Shown here: positions 16,408 through 60,568 of the stretch, piece after piece
How positions within the stretch are numbered: the first letter of the stretch is position 1
How the letters are laid out: the number at the start of each line of letters is the position of its first letter
Sequence record: OZ035760.1
Origin: Tequatrovirus NIC06P2
DNA length: 64,000 nucleotides
Strand: one strand, 5' to 3'
The notes under the pieces: model-generated
Databases searched by the model: none
What the model was told of the DNA's origin: nothing
Seen by the model: only the letters and a program-made list of their open reading frames with translations
Program-made: the position numbers and the translations under genes

Positions 16408-16650
16408 TTAAACAGACTTTTTCACAATTTTCCAATCAGCTTTAAACTGTTCAACGTCAGAATGGTAAATCCAGAATCCTGCGCTTTCTCCATCCTCATA
16501 AAGAGGGCATCCATCACATTCACCTTCCCATCCCATACCACGTAAAAGATGTTCAGCTTTTTCAACAAGTTCAGAATCTTTACCGATGATATTAAAATAC
16601 CATTTACCTCTAACTTCTGAATCTTTGATGCTTTGGCGTTGTAATCTCAT
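16408..16650 (-). CDS. hypothetical protein (80 aa)
   Basis: Complete ORF with early promoter/leader upstream. Confidence 0.5.
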   Translation of the reverse strand: MRLQRQSIKDSEVRGKWYFNIIGKDSELVEKAEHLLRGMGWEGECDGCPLYEDGESAGFWIYHSDVEQFKADWKIVKKSV

Positions 16651-16705
16651 TTTATTCTCCTTAGTTGATAGGGTAATAGTATCACACTACTACCCTGATG
16701 TAAAC
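16651..16705 (-). promoter_or_regulatory. early promoter and leader (GTTTAC...ATACTATTACCCTATCAACTAAGGAG)
   Basis: Conserved promoter/leader cassette repeated at other loci in this window. Confidence 0.5.
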
Positions 16706-17070
16706 TACTTTTTGAAAGTTTTTCGCAAAAGTTCAATGATTTCGTCTACATTGTTTTCATCTACAATGCAGTGAATTTTTGTTACGCCATAAACCTGGTC
16801 TTTGACTTCATCTTCTTCAGAAGTCGGTTCTTTATACTCACGAAAACAATGAAATTCGTCTTCACAAACGTTAAAGTAAAAATGCTTTCCATTTGCACAT
16901 TCAATGTGTTTTATTGCTCTAAATCCATCAGCAAAGAAAGCTTCTTTAACTTCAAACCACCCGCCATTTTCTTCAATAATTTTAACTATTGATGAATTAG
17001 AACGTGGGCGATAATTAATAAATGTATCAATAAGTCTTGGAACAAGTTCATACTTTTTGCCAATATACAT
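16705..17070 (-). CDS. hypothetical protein (121 aa)
   Basis: Complete ORF. Confidence 0.5.
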   Translation of the reverse strand: MYIGKKYELVPRLIDTFINYRPRSNSSIVKIIEENGGWFEVKEAFFADGFRAIKHIECANGKHFYFNVCEDEFHCFREYKEPTSEEDEVKDQVYGVTKIHCIVDENNVDEIIELLRKTFKK

Positions 17071-17341: not shown

Positions 17342-17415
17342 ATTATTTTTCCCCTTTAATTATCAGCAGTATTGCCGATAGTTGTATAGTACCATGGAAG
17401 GACAAGGATGTAAAC
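17342..17415 (-). promoter_or_regulatory. early promoter and leader (GTTTAC ... GGTACTATACAACTATCGGCAAT)
   Basis: GTTTAC -35 with downstream conserved leader; follows the gene 32 terminator. Confidence 0.5.
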
Positions 17416-17440
17416 CGTTTTGTGAAAAAATTTTTGAAAT

Positions 17441-17465
17441 AAAAAAGGGGACCTCTAGGGTCCCC
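17441..17465 (-). terminator. intrinsic terminator downstream of gene 32
   Basis: ggggacc-ctag-aggtcccc stem-loop followed by T6 on the minus strand directly after the gene 32 stop. Confidence 0.8.
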
Positions 17466-25755: not shown

Positions 25756-25760
25756 ATTGA

Positions 25761-25783
25761 GGGAGCCTTCGGGTTCCCTTTTT
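25761..25783 (+). terminator. intrinsic terminator after gene 35
   Basis: gggagcc-uucg-gguuccc hairpin followed by T5. Confidence 0.7.
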
Positions 25784-29846: not shown

Positions 29847-29864
29847 AGAGGGCTTCGGCCCTCT
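29847..29864 (+). other. stable UUCG-loop hairpin between genes 37 and 38
   Basis: agagggc-uucg-gcccucu directly after the gene 37 stop; not followed by a clean U-run. Confidence 0.45.
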
Positions 29865-29875
29865 AAGGATTTTTA

Positions 29876-30658
29876 ATGGCAATTGTAGGTGTTCCTGGCT
29901 GGATTGGTGAATCTGCCGTGAATGAAACTGGACAACGTTGGATGGATGCTGCAATGAGAGCAGTTCGTGTTTCAGTTCCCGGTTGGATGAGCTCAATGGC
30001 TGGACAATCTAAAGAAATTATTCACACGCTTGGAGCAGACCATAACTTCAATGGTCAATGGTTCCGAGATAGGTGTTTTGAGGCAGGTAGTACACCTATA
30101 GTGTTTAATATTACAGGTGATTTAGTATCATATTCTAAAGATGTTCCTTTATTCTTCATGTATGGAGATACACCGAATGAATATGTTCAGTTGAATATAC
30201 ACGGCGTAACGATGTATGGACGTGGCGGTAATGGCGGTAGCAATAGTCCTGGCTCAGCTGGAGGTCATTGTATTCAAAATGATATTGGTGGGAGACTAAG
30301 AATTAATAATGGTGGAGCTATTGCTGGCGGCGGCGGTGGCGGTGGCGGCGGATATTATTCTCCTTTTTCACAAATGAGATTGACCTTTGGCGGCGGTGGC
30401 GGTCGTCCTTTTGGTGCGCCAGGCGGATCTATTGATATGCAATCAGGCGCGACTGGTGGTACTATTTCTGCACCTGGCTCAGGATCCGTGAATGGTATCT
30501 ATAATGGCGGAAACGGTGGTGAAGTAGGTTCCGCGGGAGGTAGATGCAATATTCGCGGTCAAGGATCTGAATATAATGGCGGCGCTGCTGGTTATGCTGT
30601 CATAGGGTCCGCTCCAACGTGGCAAAATGTTGGAGCAATATATGGTCCAAGAGTATAA
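29876..30658 (+). CDS. 38: gp38 tail-fibre tip adhesin, T2-type (260 aa; glycine-rich motifs)
   Basis: Multiple poly-Gly motifs ([39 protein letters not shown]) separated by variable segments; follows gene 37. Confidence 0.85.
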
Positions 30659-34073: not shown

Positions 34074-34144
34074 TTTCTAATCTCCGTAATTCTGTATCAG
34101 TAGTTGATAGTTGTATAGTACCACAGTATGCTTTGGTTGTAAAC
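34074..34144 (-). promoter_or_regulatory. early promoter and leader upstream of motA
   Basis: GTTTAC -35 with GGTACTATACAACTATCAACTAC leader; near-duplicate of the cassette at 17342-17415. Confidence 0.5.
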
Positions 34145-34168
34145 CGTTTTGTGAAAAAAATTTAAAAT

Positions 34169-34194
34169 AAAAAAGGGAGAGCCTCGGCTCTCCC
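34169..34194 (-). terminator. intrinsic terminator
   Basis: gggagagcc/ggctctccc stem followed by T-run on the minus strand. Confidence 0.7.
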
Positions 34195-37235: not shown

Positions 37236-37293
37236 TTTCTGTTCCTCCGTAGTTGATAGGGTAATAATACCACAGAGGAACAGTCTTGTAAAC
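37236..37293 (-). promoter_or_regulatory. early promoter and leader (GTTTAC...GGTATTATTACCCTATCAACTACGGAGGAAC)
   Basis: Conserved cassette shared with 16651-16705 and 37743-37799. Confidence 0.5.
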
Positions 37294-37478
37294 AACTTTT
37301 TTAAAAATATTCGTAATAAATGTGAATACCAACTACTACCGCTGAAACCTGTGCAACCCACCACGCACAAGCAATAAGTACAGAATTCATAATTTTCATA
37401 ATAACCTCATTACAAAAGTAAATGTTAAACAAATTACTGGAATACTAATTAACCAAACAAAACACCACCACAGTGAAC

Positions 37479-37742: not shown

Positions 37743-37799
37743 TTTTGTTCCTCCGTAGTTGATAGGGTAATAGTACCACGGTCCTTGTGGTATGTAAAC
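37743..37799 (-). promoter_or_regulatory. early promoter and leader (GTTTAC...GGTACTATTACCCTATCAACTACGGAGGAAC)
   Basis: GTTTAC -35, 17-nt spacer, conserved leader with GGAGG Shine-Dalgarno. Confidence 0.55.
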
Positions 37800-37815
37800 T
37801 AGTTTATGAAAATTT

Positions 37816-38373
37816 TTAGATGGAAAGATACCATCCGTTGTAGTTGCTTTTTCGCACTACCTTACGAAGGTCTTCTCTATCCCCAATGAACTTCGGAGTG
37901 TACTGGATGACACCTGGATGAATTTCTTTAGTGTTGAATATAATTATACAGTCCGCGACTTGATGATTTAGAATGGGCCCTAGATTTATTCCAGAACCGT
38001 ATGGATACTCTCCGCTGCATCCTGTTGTTACCGAAATCCAACGTGAGTCAGTTTGATGTGTCTTAACTTCTACACGAAGCCCACAGTATTTTGGATGTGC
38101 TAAAACATCCCATGCATATGTGTACGGATCATCGACATCTTCTTGGCCTTTATTGACATATCCGCTTAGCCAATCTGCCACAAAAAACTCTGCGTACACA
38201 GCGATACGGCATCTTTCGATAACTTCTGCCTTATCCTGATTTGGGTTCTGTTTTAAAGAGTATCTTACAGTATCAGCAATTTTGACCTTCATTTCATTGG
38301 TTAAATCGCTGTTCGATAGAGTAAATGTCGGAATCTGAAATAGTCTCTGTAACCCAGGATTCGTTTTCTGCAT
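37816..38373 (-). CDS. denB: endonuclease IV (185 aa)
   Basis: Matches T4 DenB length and sequence. Confidence 0.85.
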   Translation of the reverse strand: MQKTNPGLQRLFQIPTFTLSNSDLTNEMKVKIADTVRYSLKQNPNQDKAEVIERCRIAVYAEFFVADWLSGYVNKGQEDVDDPYTYAWDVLAHPKYCGLRVEVKTHQTDSRWISVTTGCSGEYPYGSGINLGPILNHQVADCIIIFNTKEIHPGVIQYTPKFIGDREDLRKVVRKSNYNGWYLSI

Positions 38374-38441
38374 TTAAACTTTCCTTTATGTCGGAATCAC
38401 TGATATTCATATAATAAATCATAATTTCTCTTAAAACAAAA

Positions 38442-38453
38442 GGGCCGAAGCCC
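38442..38453 (-). terminator. hairpin gggc-cgaa-gccc with flanking U-run (after denB.1-position ORF)
   Basis: Stem-loop followed by TTTTGTTTT on the minus strand; identical hairpin recurs at 38670-38681. Confidence 0.55.
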
Positions 38454-38458
38454 TTATT

Positions 38459-38653
38459 TTATTTGAATTGTGCAATTCTTTTCTCTAGACATTCAGCATA
38501 AGATTTCATTGAGATGAACTGTGAAAGTAACAGTTCTTGCTCAACTGCGTTAACTGTTAGAAACTTTGTGCTTTCTAAAAATTTGCTCAGTGCATTAATT
38601 TTGAGCATTAATTGATCGTATTCTTCTTTTACTCGTGCTTGATAACCTAACAT
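38459..38653 (-). CDS. hypothetical protein (64 aa; denB.1 position)
   Basis: Complete ORF bracketed by two identical hairpins. Confidence 0.5.
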   Translation of the reverse strand: MLGYQARVKEEYDQLMLKINALSKFLESTKFLTVNAVEQELLLSQFISMKSYAECLEKRIAQFK

Positions 38654-38669
38654 AATTTTCCTTAGTTAA

Positions 38670-38681
38670 GGGCCGAAGCCC
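38670..38681 (-). other. hairpin gggc-cgaa-gccc at the rIIB stop (second copy)
   Basis: Same 12-nt hairpin with matching flanks (aagggccgaagcccttattt); no U-run on the minus strand. Confidence 0.45.
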
Positions 38682-39620
38682 TTATTTAAATTGTTCAGTA
38701 ACGTCTTCAACTACTTCGTATTGGCAGGTACGCATTTTAGCATCGTTGTAATCAATCGGAATTGATACTACATCACGCGGATGTACTTTAACTTTTACAA
38801 CTCGGCTGGTTGAACTGCCAAAGTGACGAATATAAGATTTAGAACACACATGCAGACCACGAGAACAAGTTTGTGTATCATCGTCATTCACACGAGTACG
38901 TGGCATTTTAACTACTTTACCCGGACTGTTATCAAAGGTGTTTGAGTGACAGTCAAAGTAGTTGTCACGAACTACTTTCCAAGCATAGAAGTAACCATCT
39001 TCGGTGATTTCAATATCGTTTGCTACCAAGAAATCAAAGAGTCGAGATACCGCTTTTTGGCTTGGGTTTTCCAACAGATTTTCCAGGAACGGAAAATAAA
39101 ATTCAAAGTTTTCACCTTTTTCCATCGAGTCAAGAATACGATCAATTAAACCAGACCGCAATTCAATATTTTGATAGAACAAGCTTCCACCTTCAATTCG
39201 AACATCACCGGAAATATATTTTTCAACAGCGCGACGAACGTTAATTTTTTGCGCAGCTTCTTCCAGCTTATCCGCTACAAGCAGATTAAGAATTTCCTGG
39301 AAGTTTGAATGAGTATTAGGAGTTGCGTTATAAGTTACACCGTCAACAGTAATTGAAATGAATTTTTTAGATGCATTCCAAATAATGTCAGATTTAGCAA
39401 CCGGAGCAATAACTGCATCGCTATTAACTTTAACTGTAATATCACCGCTAATAGTAACTTTAGGGCGTTTAGCTTCTTCAGCATTTTTCAAAACACGACG
39501 GATTGTGTCAACCGATACACCTTGCCAATCAGCCAATTCCTGTTGGGTGTAATTACCACTTGAGTACAGCTTAACAATTTCAGCTTGTTCGTTTTTGGTC
39601 AGGCATTTAATATTGTACAT
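38682..39620 (-). CDS. rIIB: rIIB (312 aa)
   Basis: Matches T4 rIIB length and sequence; adjacent to rIIA. Confidence 0.95.
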   Translation of the reverse strand: MYNIKCLTKNEQAEIVKLYSSGNYTQQELADWQGVSVDTIRRVLKNAEEAKRPKVTISGDITVKVNSDAVIAPVAKSDIIWNASKKFISITVDGVTYNATPNTHSNFQEILNLLVADKLEEAAQKINVRRAVEKYISGDVRIEGGSLFYQNIELRSGLIDRILDSMEKGENFEFYFPFLENLLENPSQKAVSRLFDFLVANDIEITEDGYFYAWKVVRDNYFDCHSNTFDNSPGKVVKMPRTRVNDDDTQTCSRGLHVCSKSYIRHFGSSTSRVVKVKVHPRDVVSIPIDYNDAKMRTCQYEVVEDVTEQFK

Positions 39621-39631
39621 AATTTTCCTTA

Positions 39632-41809
39632 TTAGGCCGCAAGGGCCTTCATAGTTTTAGCGATTTGGGAAACTTCATCATCGCTCAAAGAGTTGCGATA
39701 ACCGATGAAGTCGGAAACAATACTGAATTTCTTGGTAAACTCAGCAACCATTTTATCACTATTTTTTGAAGCATTACGTGATAATTCATCAAAAAGATTA
39801 GTTACCGTCCAGATGTCATGACCGATGGTATCTTTTCCACCATTAAAATATACACCCTGTAATGAACTAACCATATTAGCGAGTCGTGTATATTCTTCAG
39901 AAACTTCATCTACACTGAAGTACTTCATCATAAAATCTAGCTCAGGATACTTGATAATTTTATCAATATATCGTTTAGCTGAACTTGAATAACCTACATA
40001 CTTATCATAATCTACATCATCAAAAGCATCTACATATAAATCACGCAAAGCTTCAAAAATACATTGGCACTGACCGAGTTCTTTTACCTTTTTCTGTAAA
40101 AGCGGACGAATAACATAAAATTCATTAATGCCAATAAGATTAGCCATACGAATCAAAATATTCATAGATGGATGACAAAGAGATGTAGTACCATCCATAG
40201 AGAAAATATCAGAACGATGCATATACGCTACATAACCAGTAATTTCATCTGCTTCTGACGTAAGTGTAAACAGTTCCTCTTTTTCCCAACGCCCGTCTTT
40301 AATTTCAAACTTAAATGCTGTAGCAGCTTTAGGACGAGGAGCTTTACTTTTAACTACCTTTGGAATATAGCTTTTAACTAAAGCTTCAATTTCTGACAAA
40401 TAATGAATGTTAACTTCATCACTTTCAAACATCGCCATAATATCAGGAAGCAAATCAATCTGCGATTCTACTTCTGGATTAATAAACAGAAGACGTTCGT
40501 TGTGATGAATATTCAAAGTGTTATTAAATTCACTATCATCTAACGCACGTGCTAATCCACGGACAATATTAACACGATTTTTAATATTATCAATAACGAT
40601 ATTAATTTTTGTTGTATTAATACCAAACAGACGATAACTTGATGCAACGGCTGAAGTTTCATGACTTTGCTTAATGCGCTTCAGTCGAGGGTCAAGATTT
40701 ACTTCATACACAACTCCTGCATTGCATAACTTACTATCAGGTTCAAACATACTCTGCATCTTCTTATATGACAGATTTTTAGTCGTGAATTTGACTGAAT
40801 TACTAATCATATAATCTCGAGCAGAATACCCCATCTTCATCAATTCACGATATGTGTGACGAGGAGATGTAGATTCTTTAAATCGTTTTACATCTTCATT
40901 AAATGCTTTCTCACTGAGTTCTTTAACTCGTTCAATAATATTTTTACGAGTACGATCATCAAGTGAAAGAGCCTCGCGAGATGGAGCAATATCAAGTGAA
41001 CCCATTGGAAACTTAATGTAATTCACTTCATTGCGAATGCTTAACCAGTTGCGGTCTCTAATAACACCATCAATAGGATAAACAATACCGCCATAGATAG
41101 CATATAATCCACCACGATCTGGCCAGTATCTTTCTGGATTTACACCGTAATAATCATCAAAATCCGGAAAATAATCAATTTCGCGGTCAAGACCATTAAT
41201 GATAGCCAAATCTTTGAACGGTCGCATGATATAAGAAACTTCATAAGCAAAGTTTCTAAAGTCTTTTTCTTCAACTGGAACTACGATTTCAATACCAGTT
41301 TTATCATCTGGACCCATTTCTTTTACGAATGTAGGTTTAATCTGTGGACCATCACCATCCATGTAAGCTACATAACCACGAATTTCACCTTTATGATACG
41401 AAGTAATACTAAACGTATCAGTATAACTAAACGGAGATTTAGAACCTAAACCAAATCCGCCAATGAAATCGTTAGATTCAGCCTTAGATGAACTGAAGTA
41501 TGAATTATACAGACCAGGAGAATTATCATCACCCTGAATATCAAAATCACTCATACCCGGACCAAAATCTCGACAAACAAATCGTGGATCTAAACGTCCA
41601 GGAACTTGTATGATAAATTTTTCAGGATTTCCATTGAGAGCATGGGCATCAATCATGTTGGTAATCAATTCACGGACTACTGCGCGAATTTTGTTTGTAT
41701 ACAAATCAGATGACAGAATTTTAAATACTTTAGGAGATGCTGTGATGCTAAATGCTTTTGATTTAGAACCATTACCAAGAATTGTTTCTTTTTCAGTGGT
41801 GATAATCAT
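39632..41809 (-). CDS. rIIA: rIIA (725 aa)
   Basis: T4 rIIA length; N-terminal GHKL-type ATPase-like region; synteny. Confidence 0.95.
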
Positions 41810-42023: not shown

Positions 42024-42078
42024 TTCAATATCCTCATTTGCCCAATTAATTATACCACATCCTTGTGGTAAAGTAAAC
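42024..42078 (-). promoter_or_regulatory. candidate early promoter (GTTTAC at 42073-42078)
   Basis: Reverse complement GTTTACTTTACCACAAGGATGTGGTATAATTAA upstream of the rIIA.1 ORF. Confidence 0.5.
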
Positions 42079-43898
42079 TACTGGCTCATCCATTCTTTAC
42101 GAAGGTCAGCGTTATCTCCCATGAGCATTTCAAAAAGCTCTTTCCAATTCTCAGGAAGTTTAACAACATCATATACTGGATTTTGAATCATCTCACGATA
42201 TTCAGATTTTTCCAAAGAGCCAAGTCCTTTAATATAACGGATGCTATGTTTAGGTAGAGCATCTTTGGCACTCTCATATTCAGCGACTGTATAAAACCAT
42301 TCTTGTTTTTTACCGACCTGAGCGATGATTACAGGAGTTTTGACAAAGCGAATTCGTCCTTGCTCAAACAATTCTGGCCAATTACTAAAAAATCCGAGCA
42401 GAGAAGGATAAATGCTTCCTAGACCATCATGGTCAGCATCAGTCATAATAGCAATATTATGATAATTCAAGTTTTCAGCTTTTTCACCGAGAACTAATCC
42501 AGTGATTGCGCAAATATCAAATAGTTCTTTGTTTTTAAGCATATCAGCATATGACATACCCCAACTGTTGAGAACTTTACCACGTAATGGATAACCACCG
42601 TGAAGTTCTTTATCACGAACATCAATAAGATATCCGATAGCCGAATCACCCTCAGTCAAGAAAAGAGTAGTATCAGCATCTTTACCACAAAGATTCGCTT
42701 TAATATGTTTATGAACCTTAGCTTTAGAAGCCTTTTTAGCTGCTTTAGTTTCTGCTGCTTTTTCTGCCGCTAATTTACGAGCCAAAGCAGCTTCAATAAT
42801 CGGCATTAGAATTGCTTCATTATTTAGAATAGCACGTGAAATCTTTTTAGCATCAAGCTGAATATGACTACGGATTTCACCAAATGGAGAAGTCAAGCGC
42901 TCTTTAGTTTGAGAATCAAATCGCATGTTTTTCATATCACGAACAAACATAACGATAGTCAAACATTCTTTAACACGTGCTTTAGTTACATCAATTTTGA
43001 ACTTACGTTTGATTTGTGGAATAAGGTCTTCACAAATATCATCCATAACACAGTCAATGTGATGGCCACCATTCTTAGTGTGGATGTTATTGACGTATGT
43101 TAATTGACGAAAACCATCCGGTGAACGACCAACCGCAATAGAACAATTTTCTTGTTCTTGAACAATAGCATGCTCATCATATTGGCGTGCATATTTCTTA
43201 AAATTGCCCTGAACCTTTTTACCATTAAAGGTAAATTGAATATCAGGATAAACAACAGCAAGTGTCTGGAGACGATCTAGTGTAATGTCAAGATAAACTT
43301 GGGACAGCTCATTAGTTTCAAATGACATAAAATCAGGAATGAAAGTAACACGAGTTCCTTTCCATTTTCCAGGAATATCTTCCCATGATTTATTTTCCAT
43401 GCCGTTTGAACAACGAACTACAATATTATTTTGACCATCACCAGTTTCACCGACAAACATCACAGAAAAAATGTTTGTCAAACTAGAACCAACACCATTC
43501 ATACCACCGGTGACGCGCTCTTTATCATCACCGAAGTTACCACCTGCTTTTGGAATAGTCCACGCAGCAACAGGTCCAGGAATTTCTTCACCGGTAGGTG
43601 TTTTAACCATCGCTTGTGGAATACCGCGACCGTTATCTTCAACTGTTACTTGATTGTTTTTAATAGTAACATTAATTTTATTTGCGAATTTAAACTTAGT
43701 ACGAATACCTTCATCTACTGAGTTATCGATAATTTCATCAATAAGCTTAACAAGACCAGGTACATACTGAACACTTTCCCATTTACCAAACAGAAAGCGC
43801 TCATGCATTTCATTAGCAGAAGAGCCAATGTACATGCCGCTACGCTTTTTGATATGTTCAATATCGCTCAGAATTTTAATTTCATTCTTAATCATCAC
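42078..43898 (-). CDS. 39: DNA topoisomerase II large subunit, single fused gp39 (606 aa; covers T4 genes 39 and 60)
   Basis: GyrB-like ATPase (GHKL) and TOPRIM regions in one uninterrupted ORF; no internal gap, no mobA. Confidence 0.9.
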   Translation of the reverse strand: MMIKNEIKILSDIEHIKKRSGMYIGSSANEMHERFLFGKWESVQYVPGLVKLIDEIIDNSVDEGIRTKFKFANKINVTIKNNQVTVEDNGRGIPQAMVKTPTGEEIPGPVAAWTIPKAGGNFGDDKERVTGGMNGVGSSLTNIFSVMFVGETGDGQNNIVVRCSNGMENKSWEDIPGKWKGTRVTFIPDFMSFETNELSQVYLDITLDRLQTLAVVYPDIQFTFNGKKVQGNFKKYARQYDEHAIVQEQENCSIAVGRSPDGFRQLTYVNNIHTKNGGHHIDCVMDDICEDLIPQIKRKFKIDVTKARVKECLTIVMFVRDMKNMRFDSQTKERLTSPFGEIRSHIQLDAKKISRAILNNEAILMPIIEAALARKLAAEKAAETKAAKKASKAKVHKHIKANLCGKDADTTLFLTEGDSAIGYLIDVRDKELHGGYPLRGKVLNSWGMSYADMLKNKELFDICAITGLVLGEKAENLNYHNIAIMTDADHDGLGSIYPSLLGFFSNWPELFEQGRIRFVKTPVIIAQVGKKQEWFYTVAEYESAKDALPKHSIRYIKGLGSLEKSEYREMIQNPVYDVVKLPENWKELFEMLMGDNADLRKEWMSQ

Positions 43899-43947: not shown

Positions 43948-43965
43948 AAAGGCCCGAAGGCCTTT
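43948..43965 (-). other. hairpin aaaggcc-cgaa-ggccttt (bidirectional terminator-like)
   Basis: Perfect 7-bp stem with GNRA loop flanked by A-run and T-run; lies between gene 39 start and the upstream ORF stop. Confidence 0.45.
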
Positions 43966-45719: not shown

Positions 45720-45803
45720 GTTGTTTTCTGTATCAGTAGTTGATATTGATATAGTACCATAATCAACTACTGATGTATATAGTTTTATGAAAAAATTTAA
45801 ACT

Positions 45804-46295
45804 TTATGCATAGCGAGCTTTGCTGTAGTGTTTAATCCAACTTTCAGGAATGACTTTGTATGTTCCTAAAAATACCACATTGTACAGCTTAACACCATCT
45901 TCTACCCATTGATCAGTAATGTATGCACACATAGCGCGAGTACGCTGAGGAAGTGGTTGTCCACCTTCGGTAAATTCAAACTCATAAGGAGCAATGAACT
46001 TGATAGCTTGACCAAGTTTCCACTTAAAGTCTACACCTACATGTGAAGTATCAATCGTTTCAATTCCTTTAGCAGGAACAGCTTTCAAAAACGCAGATTC
46101 AAGAAATTTCGCGCGAACATAACCAAACTGAGGTTTAGACTTTCCATCTTTAGGAATGATACGCACTTTTACTTCAGAATCTTCATCTTTAACGCCGTGT
46201 TTAAGCTGAATGCTTACAATTTCGACCAATTTTCCTGCTGCTTTAGAACGGGATTTATCAGATACACGAGCAATTTCACCAATATTAATAATCAT
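45804..46295 (-). CDS. motB: MotB (163 aa)
   Basis: Matches T4 MotB size and sequence. Confidence 0.8.
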   Translation of the reverse strand: MIINIGEIARVSDKSRSKAAGKLVEIVSIQLKHGVKDEDSEVKVRIIPKDGKSKPQFGYVRAKFLESAFLKAVPAKGIETIDTSHVGVDFKWKLGQAIKFIAPYEFEFTEGGQPLPQRTRAMCAYITDQWVEDGVKLYNVVFLGTYKVIPESWIKHYSKARYA

Positions 46296-54778: not shown

Positions 54779-54785
54779 ATTTAAA

Positions 54786-54809
54786 TGAAAAAAGGACTCC
54801 CGAAGGAGT
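54786..54809 (-). terminator. intrinsic terminator downstream of soc (same hairpin as at 1203-1226)
   Basis: ggactcc-cgaa-ggagtcc followed by T-run on the minus strand. Confidence 0.75.
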
Positions 54810-54819
54810 CCTTGAATTA

Positions 54820-55056
54820 TTAACCACCTATTTCTGTTGGCGTAAACATTGCAGCATTCTTAGTTTTCCAGTCAGCTGCATCAGAAACTACAGTAGAATA
54901 TGCTGCCTTTTCAGAAGGAAAGGTCTGATAATGAGAATCTGCAATACGATGCTCGTTAGAATAGATTTCAAACGGAACAGAAACTTCCATACCTTTAACT
55001 TCTTTGCCTTCACCTGCTGGATGAGTAAAGGTCTTGATGTTAACGAAACCGCCCAT
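54820..55056 (-). CDS. soc: small outer capsid protein Soc (78 aa)
   Basis: Conserved Soc motifs (YVNIKTF..., HYQTFPSEKAAYSTV) and late promoter upstream. Confidence 0.9.
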   Translation of the reverse strand: MGGFVNIKTFTHPAGEGKEVKGMEVSVPFEIYSNEHRIADSHYQTFPSEKAAYSTVVSDAADWKTKNAAMFTPTEIGG

Positions 55057-60205: not shown

Positions 60206-60568
60206 TTAAAAGAATTTAAACTTTTTCTTTGACCTTTTATTAAATGCATCTTGTAGTTGCATTGTAATACATTTTTCTACATGAGGAGCTAACTCAGCTT
60301 TTCTTTCTTGGTCAAGAACAGCAAAGTCCATTACGACTTTTCCATCAACCCAATCTAATTTTGTCACATACACAATGTGTGTAGAACCATCTTCTAGTTT
60401 AATGACAATCTCCTGGATAACATTTTCCATAGCGGATTTAATTATCTTAAGAGACTCATTAAAAAGACGTTCTTTTCTTTCTTCTTCCCCCTCCGAAGAG
60501 GGGGATTCATCGATAATTTCTAGATCTAAATCTAAATCATCTTTATTCATTAAATTCTTCCATATCAC
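60206..60568 (-). CDS. 40: gp40 head vertex assembly chaperone (120 aa)
   Basis: Size and position between uvsX and 41. Confidence 0.6.
   Translation of the reverse strand: MIWKNLMNKDDLDLDLEIIDESPSSEGEEERKERLFNESLKIIKSAMENVIQEIVIKLEDGSTHIVYVTKLDWVDGKVVMDFAVLDQERKAELAPHVEKCITMQLQDAFNKRSKKKFKFF

Follow-up and report, generated by a model that had tools for sequence, protein, structure and literature searches.

The rIIB-denB interval of Tequatrovirus NIC06P2 raises the question of what two identical hairpins are doing on either side of a single small gene. Within the 64,000-nucleotide stretch analysed here (sequence record OZ035760.1; hereafter the window), the gene denB.1 is flanked by two exact copies of the 20-mer AAGGGCCGAAGCCCTTATTT, at 38440-38459 and 38668-38687; the window holds no others, and the number expected by chance is 0.00 (100 shuffles). 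We refer to the copy at the end of rIIB as proximal and to the copy following denB.1 as distal. The phage is a T4-like Tequatrovirus, 97.8% identical to BCH953P4 and approximately 96% identical to T2 and T4 across 37800-39700, and rIIA, rIIB, denB.1 and denB are all encoded on its minus strand. The initial annotation had rightly seen that the repeated hairpins bracket one small open reading frame (ORF) in the denB.1 position, which encodes 64 amino acids (aa) with 95% identity to DenB.1 of T4; it located the proximal copy exactly and the distal copy one nucleotide (nt) too far along (38441-38460). It labelled both as GNRA hairpins and left two options for their role, namely a terminator plus an RNA-processing or stability element, or the footprint of a small inserted gene. 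The former is the best-supported reading: both elements are T4-type intercistronic C(UUCG)G hairpins that probably act in the minus-strand early/middle messenger RNA (mRNA), in the roles proposed below.

Because the genes lie on the minus strand, the mRNA reads GGGC-UUCG-GCCC. The plus strand has CGAA in the loop and the minus strand UUCG with a C-G closing pair, which rules out a GNRA tetraloop. The stems of the two copies comprise 6-7 base pairs (bp). At the proximal junction, whose sense strand runs ...CAAUUUAAA-UAA-GGGC-UUCG-GCCC-UUAACUAAGGAAAAUUAUG, the rIIB stop codon UAA (38682-38684) sits in the 5' arm of the stem, in keeping with the overlap originally described. At the distal junction, ...CAAUUCAAAUAAAAUAAGGGC-UUCG-GCCCUU-UUGUUUUAAGAGAAAUUAUG, the hairpin begins 3 nt past the denB.1 stop codon. 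The flanks that follow are not alike, and the early observation of a U-run after one copy only holds true on the mRNA-sense strand: the distal stem is followed by UUGUUUUAAG, a U-run with 6 T in the 8 nt past the stem, whereas the proximal stem is followed by AACUAAGGAAAAUUAUG, which contains no U-tract and 1 T in the 8 nt counted past the stem. In a 51-nt context, ViennaRNA folds the proximal hairpin at -10.9 kcal/mol (z = -2.8) and the distal hairpin, including its A/U extension, at -11.9 kcal/mol (z = -2.2). The similarity between the two junctions reaches past the 20-mer to approximately 45 nt (CAAxTxAAATAAGGGCTTCGGCCCTT + TAAGrrAAATTATG). An Rfam scan of the whole window at gathering thresholds returned no family.

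The evidence that carries our interpretation is comparative, and comes from the rIIB-denB regions of related phages to which the initial annotation had pointed. The comparison set comprised 80 rIIB-containing IMG/VR loci (32-99% rIIB identity) and eight annotated records; a hairpin was counted when it had a tetraloop, at least 5 bp and a distance of at most 70 nt from the rIIB stop, in the 48 loci with at least 40% rIIB identity. Of these 48 loci, 44 have such a hairpin behind the rIIB stop, compared with a 3.2% frequency among 942 control windows within rIIB; a UUCG loop is found in 37 of the 48 and in none of the 942. The stem itself varies across lineages (AAGGGC, GGAGGC, GGGGC, GGGGAC, AGGAGCC, AAGGGCC, AAGCCCUC and others). 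When 19 distinct hairpins were aligned on their loops, 98.2% of cells were paired, a percentage that is inflated by the selection of these hairpins through a hairpin search and that the control windows correct only partly, the control-window rate being the fairer statistic. Changes on both sides of the stem occurred in five of the six pairs, and every one of the 19 hairpins, taken from this position in other lineages, had the closing C-G pair. The covariation score of 0.747 compares with 0.222 in shuffles, none of 500 scoring as high, and collapses once the 3' partners are slid by at least one column. Furthermore, UUCG hairpins across all 80 loci lie on the rIIB strand in 60 cases and on the opposite strand in one, and no opposite-orientation hairpin was found after rIIB in the 48 loci. 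Taken together, the 60:1 sense-strand bias, the covariation and the invariant closing pair point to selection on RNA structure, and not on a plain DNA palindrome, as the force that has kept a hairpin at the rIIB stop.

Judged from these sequence comparisons, what is new here is that the rIIB-stop hairpin has kept its position across genera and has stems that covary, and that the second copy is confined to the Tequatrovirus lineage. Elements of this class have been described since 1988 and both copies are present in T4 itself, hence the novelty of the class is low and the value as a discovery small. According to the accounts of Tuerk 1988 (PNAS 85:1364) given in PMC8948821 and PMC4371310, it was in T4 mRNA that the UUCG tetraloop was first seen, and CUUCGG hairpins are especially abundant in T4, where they are mostly intergenic and stop reverse transcriptase. 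Both denB.1 hairpins are members of this class, sharing its loop, C-G closure, sense strand, intercistronic position and short G+C-rich stem. The hairpin behind the rIIB stop also occurs with other loops: some Tequatroviruses have UUUG (loci L011 and L012, the latter with an altered distal stem as well), one Dhakavirus has UCCG, PM2 has UCAG, and a single lineage has GCAA, which is a genuine GNRA loop. The more distant marine-type loci carry long-stem GNRA terminators instead.

The slot between rIIB and denB differs in content among genera. Tequatrovirus has the order rIIB, hairpin without U-run, denB.1, hairpin with U-run, DUF7418 or its remnant, and denB. Dhakavirus, Kanagawavirus and Marfavirus have rIIB, a hairpin, denB.1 abutting DUF7418, and denB, and lack the distal hairpin; in Mosigvirus and several others, rIIB is followed by a hairpin with U-run, DUF7418 and denB, denB.1 being absent. 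In the Citrobacter phage Merlin group, rIIB overlaps denB.1, which is followed by a U-run hairpin, DUF7418 and denB; denB.1 lies between two hairpins that differ from each other in Pectobacterium phage PM2 and in Winklervirus; and in several lineages rIIB, hairpin and denB follow one another directly. Slots with two hairpins have a clearly U-rich tail on one only (the distal in Tequatrovirus and PM2, the proximal in Winklervirus), and a U-run follows the rIIB-stop hairpin of Mosigvirus, Kanagawavirus, Marfavirus and others. This hairpin, kept while neighbouring small genes come and go, offers a clean case for the role of a U-less intercistronic UUCG hairpin.

These arrangements bear on whether denB.1 is a small inserted gene. 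It is present, at 90% identity or more, in approximately 495 of the approximately 499 Tequatrovirus records that match the region, it is found at this location also in Dhakavirus, Kanagawavirus, Marfavirus, Winklervirus, Merlin-like phages and PM2, and its divergence tracks that of rIIB. Hairpin-to-hairpin deletion of denB.1 within the genus was tried as a candidate event and rejected: when a synthetic 433-nt deletion junction was compared with 50,697 phage records, the best 30 of 626 matching records all retained denB.1 (as two- or three-piece matches), and the exact junction pattern gave 0 matches in IMG/VR. The two hairpin copies also drift independently, the UUUG loops of L011 and L012 being in the proximal copy. 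A neighbour-joining tree built on rIIB pairs Tequatrovirus with Mosigvirus as sister groups and places Dhakavirus, Kanagawavirus and PM2 outside the pair. We infer that denB.1 is ancestral to the Tequatrovirus-Mosigvirus-outgroup clade; being ancestral, present in essentially every Tequatrovirus and unaccompanied by any excision junction, it is not a fresh insert. Since denB.1 is found in the outgroups without the distal hairpin, it is the second hairpin and not the gene that appears to be derived, either in the Tequatrovirus lineage or in that of Tequatrovirus and Mosigvirus, and Mosigvirus would have lost denB.1 along with one hairpin. Thus, the inserted-gene footprint fails in its simple form, and the comparison of rIIB-denB regions lent it no support; a weaker form stands, in that the differences in gene content between genera have their boundaries at hairpins.

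Turning to mechanism, the distal hairpin and its U tail may well form a leaky intrinsic terminator, or attenuator, that ends the rIIA-rIIB-denB.1 unit, and we hold this to be the likely role. The distal copy shares with intrinsic terminators a G+C-rich stem, a tetraloop, the tail UUUUGUUUU, an A-rich 5' flank and a location just after a stop codon, so that the terminator half of the initial interpretation has the expected anatomy. With a short stem (6 bp) and no promoter before denB, it is probably only an attenuator. Indeed, a promoter scan gave no promoter-like site between the distal hairpin and denB, so that a Rho-independent terminator upstream of the DUF7418 remnant and denB has to be leaky unless denB is expressed by another route. 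The same scan gave no promoter-like site from either hairpin to the next start codon, where 13-17 nt are available. A sequence picked out by eye downstream of the distal hairpin, TTGTTT-17-TATTAT, was rejected as a promoter, being below the scan threshold and having a -10-like part that is not conserved in T4 or T2. With the U-run on the copy after denB.1, denB.1 would be co-transcribed with rIIB.

The proximal copy differs from intrinsic terminators in having no U-tract and would therefore not terminate; its conserved position and covarying stem are what stand of the RNA-processing or stability role first suggested. With rather less assurance than for the distal copy, we favour for it a very stable, non-terminating fold at the cistron boundary, acting as an exonuclease barrier or 5' cap and as an insulator of the ribosome-binding site. 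It would block 3'-to-5' exonucleases and so protect the ends of rIIB mRNA, and/or cap the 5' side of a processed denB.1 mRNA. It would also keep the adjacent denB.1 ribosome-binding site, which begins 2 nt past the hairpin with its AUG 13 nt downstream, out of alternative structures. A precedent from T4 is the CUUCGG hairpin in the gene 32 leader, which stabilises gene 32 mRNA (Gorski 1985, as related in PMC8948821).

Escherichia coli REP sequences, such as those of malE-malF, are intercistronic stem-loops that stabilise mRNA in polycistronic operons. By analogy with REP sequences and the gene 32 leader hairpin, the proximal copy is likewise a stable structure without a U-tract between cistrons, and would block exonucleases and let the RNA on its two sides differ in stability; it differs from REP sequences in being much smaller and overlapping the upstream stop codon. 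As to its history, the proximal hairpin may derive from a terminator that followed rIIB in an ancestor and that has kept its U-run in most other genera, the U-run of Tequatrovirus sitting on the second, derived copy after denB.1. The 20-nt identity would then reflect copying of a stop-to-start junction, or one dispersed hairpin family, and not the insertion of a gene.

Several points weigh against this interpretation, beyond the inflated pairing percentage given above. The ViennaRNA z-scores are modest; an efficient distal terminator would silence denB when no promoter precedes that gene; and our literature search found no transcript-end data (term-seq, 3'-end maps) for T4 or its relatives. 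In addition, Dhakavirus has no U-run hairpin at all between rIIB and denB; a terminator in this interval is therefore not universally required. The coordinates of the features discussed are collected in Table 1.

Table 1. Positions of features at the rIIB-denB locus and of related sites. Positions refer to the window, except where a comparison locus (L number) is named; (-), minus strand.
Feature	Position	Strand	Description
Proximal hairpin UAAGGGC-UUCG-GCCCUUA	38667-38684	(-)	7 bp, C(UUCG)G tetraloop
Distal hairpin AAGGGC-UUCG-GCCCUU	38440-38455	(-)	6 bp, C(UUCG)G tetraloop; flagged terminator-like
Distal U-rich tail UUGUUUU	38433-38439	(-)	with two stem U = UUUUGUUUU, putative terminator tail
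denB.1 translation initiation region UAAGGAAAAUUAUG	38651-38664	(-)	Shine-Dalgarno AAGGA + AUG
Third copy of initiation-region motif UAAGAGAAAUUAUG	38420-38433	(-)	precedes truncated DUF7418 ORF
rIIA	39632-41809	(-)	
rIIB	38682-39620	(-)	312 aa; upstream cistron; stop codon inside proximal hairpin
denB.1	38459-38653	(-)	64 aa; conserved small phage protein (ORF list, Pfam, phrog)
DUF7418 remnant	38294-38422	(-)	42 aa; between distal hairpin and denB; overlaps denB start
denB	37816-38373	(-)	endonuclease IV, 185 aa; downstream cistron, 66 nt past distal hairpin
Loop-variant site, L011	947-966		
Loop-variant site, L012	2436-2455		
Loop-variant site, L023	2480-2495		
Loop-variant site, L030	922-937		
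Loop-variant site, L053	1312-1331		
Early-promoter-like repeats, ~74 nt	1123-1196, 16650-16723, 17377-17451, 34089-34180, 37238-37311, 37744-37817, 45725-45816	(-)	T4 early-promoter-like sequence

The alternative that survives best, and one that does not exclude the RNA-level roles, is that the hairpins are also DNA-level recombination joints, promoter-less relatives of the PeSL (promoter-early stem-loop) elements, known from T4-like phages as mobile regulatory cassettes (Arbiol et al. 2010, PMC2839356; Comeau et al. 2014, PMC4122927). We regard it as a tentative possibility. On this account the stop-to-start junction, hairpin and ribosome-binding site together, was copied from rIIB/denB.1 to denB.1/DUF7418, after which recombination from hairpin to hairpin would insert, delete or swap small genes in the rIIB-denB slot. 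The junction similarity of approximately 45 nt, exceeding the 20-mer, is in its favour, as is the fact that the sister group Mosigvirus differs by exactly denB.1 and one hairpin while retaining the U-run copy. The gene denB.1 lies upstream of the hairpin in Merlin-like phages and downstream in Dhakavirus. A further arrangement is found at locus L054, a distant T4-like contig (rIIB 42% identical), where a 71-aa gene of phrog_6496 (E=1.5e-30) lies between two near-identical U-run UUCG hairpins (2525-2885) in the same slot between rIIB and the denB homologue; this gene has no similarity to denB.1. Near-identical hairpins 53.6 kb apart in the window, described below, fit the same account. Set against these are the near-universal presence of denB.1 in Tequatrovirus records, its retention in the best 30 matches to the synthetic junction and the absence of the exact junction from IMG/VR. 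Neither hairpin has a sigma-70 promoter; the shared stretch of just 16-26 nt is short for homologous recombination; each copy drifts on its own; and a purely DNA-level role would not predict the 60:1 strand bias.

The likeness to PeSL elements lies in repeated stem-loop junctions that flank a small non-essential ORF and end in a Shine-Dalgarno sequence and start codon, and in related phages that differ by the ORF and one copy of the element. The differences are that the denB.1 junctions lack a sigma-70 early promoter, that they share approximately 45 nt compared with approximately 100 nt, and that within Tequatrovirus no denB.1 polymorphism or excision junction was found; the presence or absence of the ORF is seen only between sister genera, Mosigvirus having rIIB, hairpin with U-run and DUF7418. 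Membership of the PeSL class was rejected, there being no promoter component and the families D1 and D2, which are genuine early-promoter cassettes elsewhere in the window, excluding these sites. It is tempting to speculate that promoter-less 'junction cassettes', consisting of stop codon, C(UUCG)G hairpin, RegA-type ribosome-binding site and AUG, are copied between cistron boundaries, although we would not put this above a possibility worth pursuing. They might, no more probably, double as recombination joints for the gain, loss and repositioning of denB.1, DUF7418 and phrog_6496. If true, this would extend the PeSL model to promoter-less elements, and the rIIB-denB slot is a test case for hairpins that guide gene shuffling.

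It is unlikely that both hairpins are transcription terminators, the proximal one also stopping RNA polymerase after rIIB. G9062 and other records do annotate these hairpins as 'putative transcriptional terminator', and the same-position hairpin of Mosigvirus, Kanagawavirus, Marfavirus and others has a U-run. The proximal stem, however, is followed on the sense strand by AACUAAGG, without a U-tract, and the denB.1 start codon only 13 nt downstream leaves no room for a promoter; full termination here would therefore silence denB.1, a gene with homologues in 660 phage records. Far less probable still is that the elements act on plus-strand (antisense) RNA, as GNRA-type hairpins or plus-strand terminators, which the plus-strand reading of the initial annotation implies. 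Both stems do precede T-rich runs on that strand (ATTTTATTTG, TTTAAATTGT) and were flagged as terminator-like, but the loop read there is CGAA and not GNRA, no opposite-orientation hairpin follows rIIB in the 48 loci, and just 7 of the 101 ORFs called in the window lie on the plus strand, the nearest of them ending at 30658, approximately 7.8 kb off. A chance repeat without function, for which only the shortness of the repeat speaks, is already refuted by the shuffles and by positional conservation with covariation across genera.

The interpretation of the two copies as mRNA-level C(UUCG)G hairpins also fits a pattern that extends through the window, and the bracketing pair, while truly flanking denB.1, is not unique. 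The dispersed repeat family to which the pair belongs (D4) has three copies, the third at 331-356, and GCTTCGGC occurs six times in the window against 0.49 expected. The strong intergenic UUCG hairpins number eight (331-346, 1207-1228, 25759-25780, 29847-29864, 38440-38455, 38667-38684, 43948-43965 and 54792-54813), all of them mRNA-sense and beginning 0-8 nt past the upstream stop codon. Among ten intergenic Watson-Crick tetraloop hairpins in the window, the sense loop is UUCG in seven and CGAA in none. Two designs recur: a U-run with a longer spacer (hairpins at 1207, 25759, 38440 and 54792), and a tight 'stop-hairpin-Shine-Dalgarno-AUG' arrangement without a U-run (331, 29847 and 38667). 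For annotation, this means that such hairpins should be read on the strand of the genes and expected at stop codons throughout T4-like genomes, and that not every UUCG hairpin is a terminator, the U-less proximal copy being an example.

Two terminator-type hairpins of the form GGACUCC-UUCG-GGAGUCC with a U-run, at 1198-1235 and 54783-54820, are near-identical (87% identity across 38 nt) despite lying 53.6 kb apart. Sequence identity alone is therefore no proof of a local bracket, since the families are dispersed. The only strong UUCG hairpin in a coding region of the window, UCCCCCUC-UUCG-GAGGGGGA (8 bp, 60486-60505, minus strand), lies in frame in a 114-aa ORF (60206-60550), 45 nt past its start, and encodes ...ESPSSEGEE.... 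The window also contains repeats of approximately 74 nt with T4 early-promoter-like sequence (GTTTAC ... TA-rich -10 ... ATCAACTACGGAGGAA; Table 1). One copy begins immediately after denB, and that at 1123-1196 follows the U-run hairpin at 1207-1228 to give a PeSL-like terminator-promoter cassette.

Both denB.1 hairpins were found in a re-sequenced T4 clone, T2, PYps55T, G9062 and three of five IMG/VR Tequatroviruses, the other two having one or both altered. The T4 reference AF158101.6 (L009 1225-1245 and 1452-1470) carries no annotation at the hairpins and is one base off inside each: its proximal copy reads AAGGC-TTCG-GCCCTT, with one G missing, and its distal copy AAAGGGC-TTCG-GCCTTTT, with one C missing. 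Exact-pattern searches consequently miss both. The hairpins are perfectly paired in the re-sequenced clone MZ375356.1 (L003) and in other Tequatroviruses with this stem, and the differences in AF158101.6 are probably old gel-compression errors, which would be an indirect hint of unusually high hairpin stability.

The initiation regions next to the hairpins form a second repeated feature. The motif TAAGRRAAATTATG (UAAGrrAAAUUAUG in RNA) occurs without mismatch at only three, consecutive junctions of the window, namely rIIA/rIIB (39618-39631), rIIB/denB.1 (38651-38664) and denB.1/DUF7418 remnant (38420-38433), the denB.1 region being identical to that of rIIB. Of the 12 nt of the published rIIB RegA site AAAAUUAUGUAC, the first 10 are matched by the denB.1 site AAAAUUAUGUUA, and the DUF7418-remnant site AAAUUAUGAUU equals the gene 44 RegA site. 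RegA may co-repress all three regions. A hairpin is also formed by the final codons of rIIA, AGGCC-CUUGC-GGCCU (39634-39648, minus strand), immediately before the rIIA stop and the rIIB ribosome-binding site, giving the same layout of hairpin then initiation region as at both denB.1 junctions.

DenB.1 itself matches Pfam PF21825 (crAss001_48-related; E=4e-19) and phrog_774 (E=2e-22), and a structure search turned up no solved structure among its relatives; the literature search yielded no useful paper on denB.1. In Bacteroides crAss-like phages, a gene annotated 'shock protein C' gave weak tblastn matches (36.7% identity, E=5e-4); the small helical domain PF21825 is thus spread far beyond T4-like phages.

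DUF7418 is intact, at 109 aa (Pfam PF24193, E=4e-37), in PYps55T/T6-type relatives (L001 805-1134) and in other genera. The rIIB-denB interval is approximately 216 bp shorter in the window, T4 and T2 than in the PYps55T/T6-type relatives, apparently through a deletion within the DUF7418 ORF and not at a hairpin. T4 encodes its topoisomerase large subunit in two pieces, genes 39 and 60, the latter with a translational bypass. The window encodes the topoisomerase II large subunit as an unsplit 605-aa GyrB-like ORF (42078-43895, minus strand) with HATPase_c, DNA_gyraseB and TOPRIM_C domains, and in this locus NIC06P2 appears to resemble T2.

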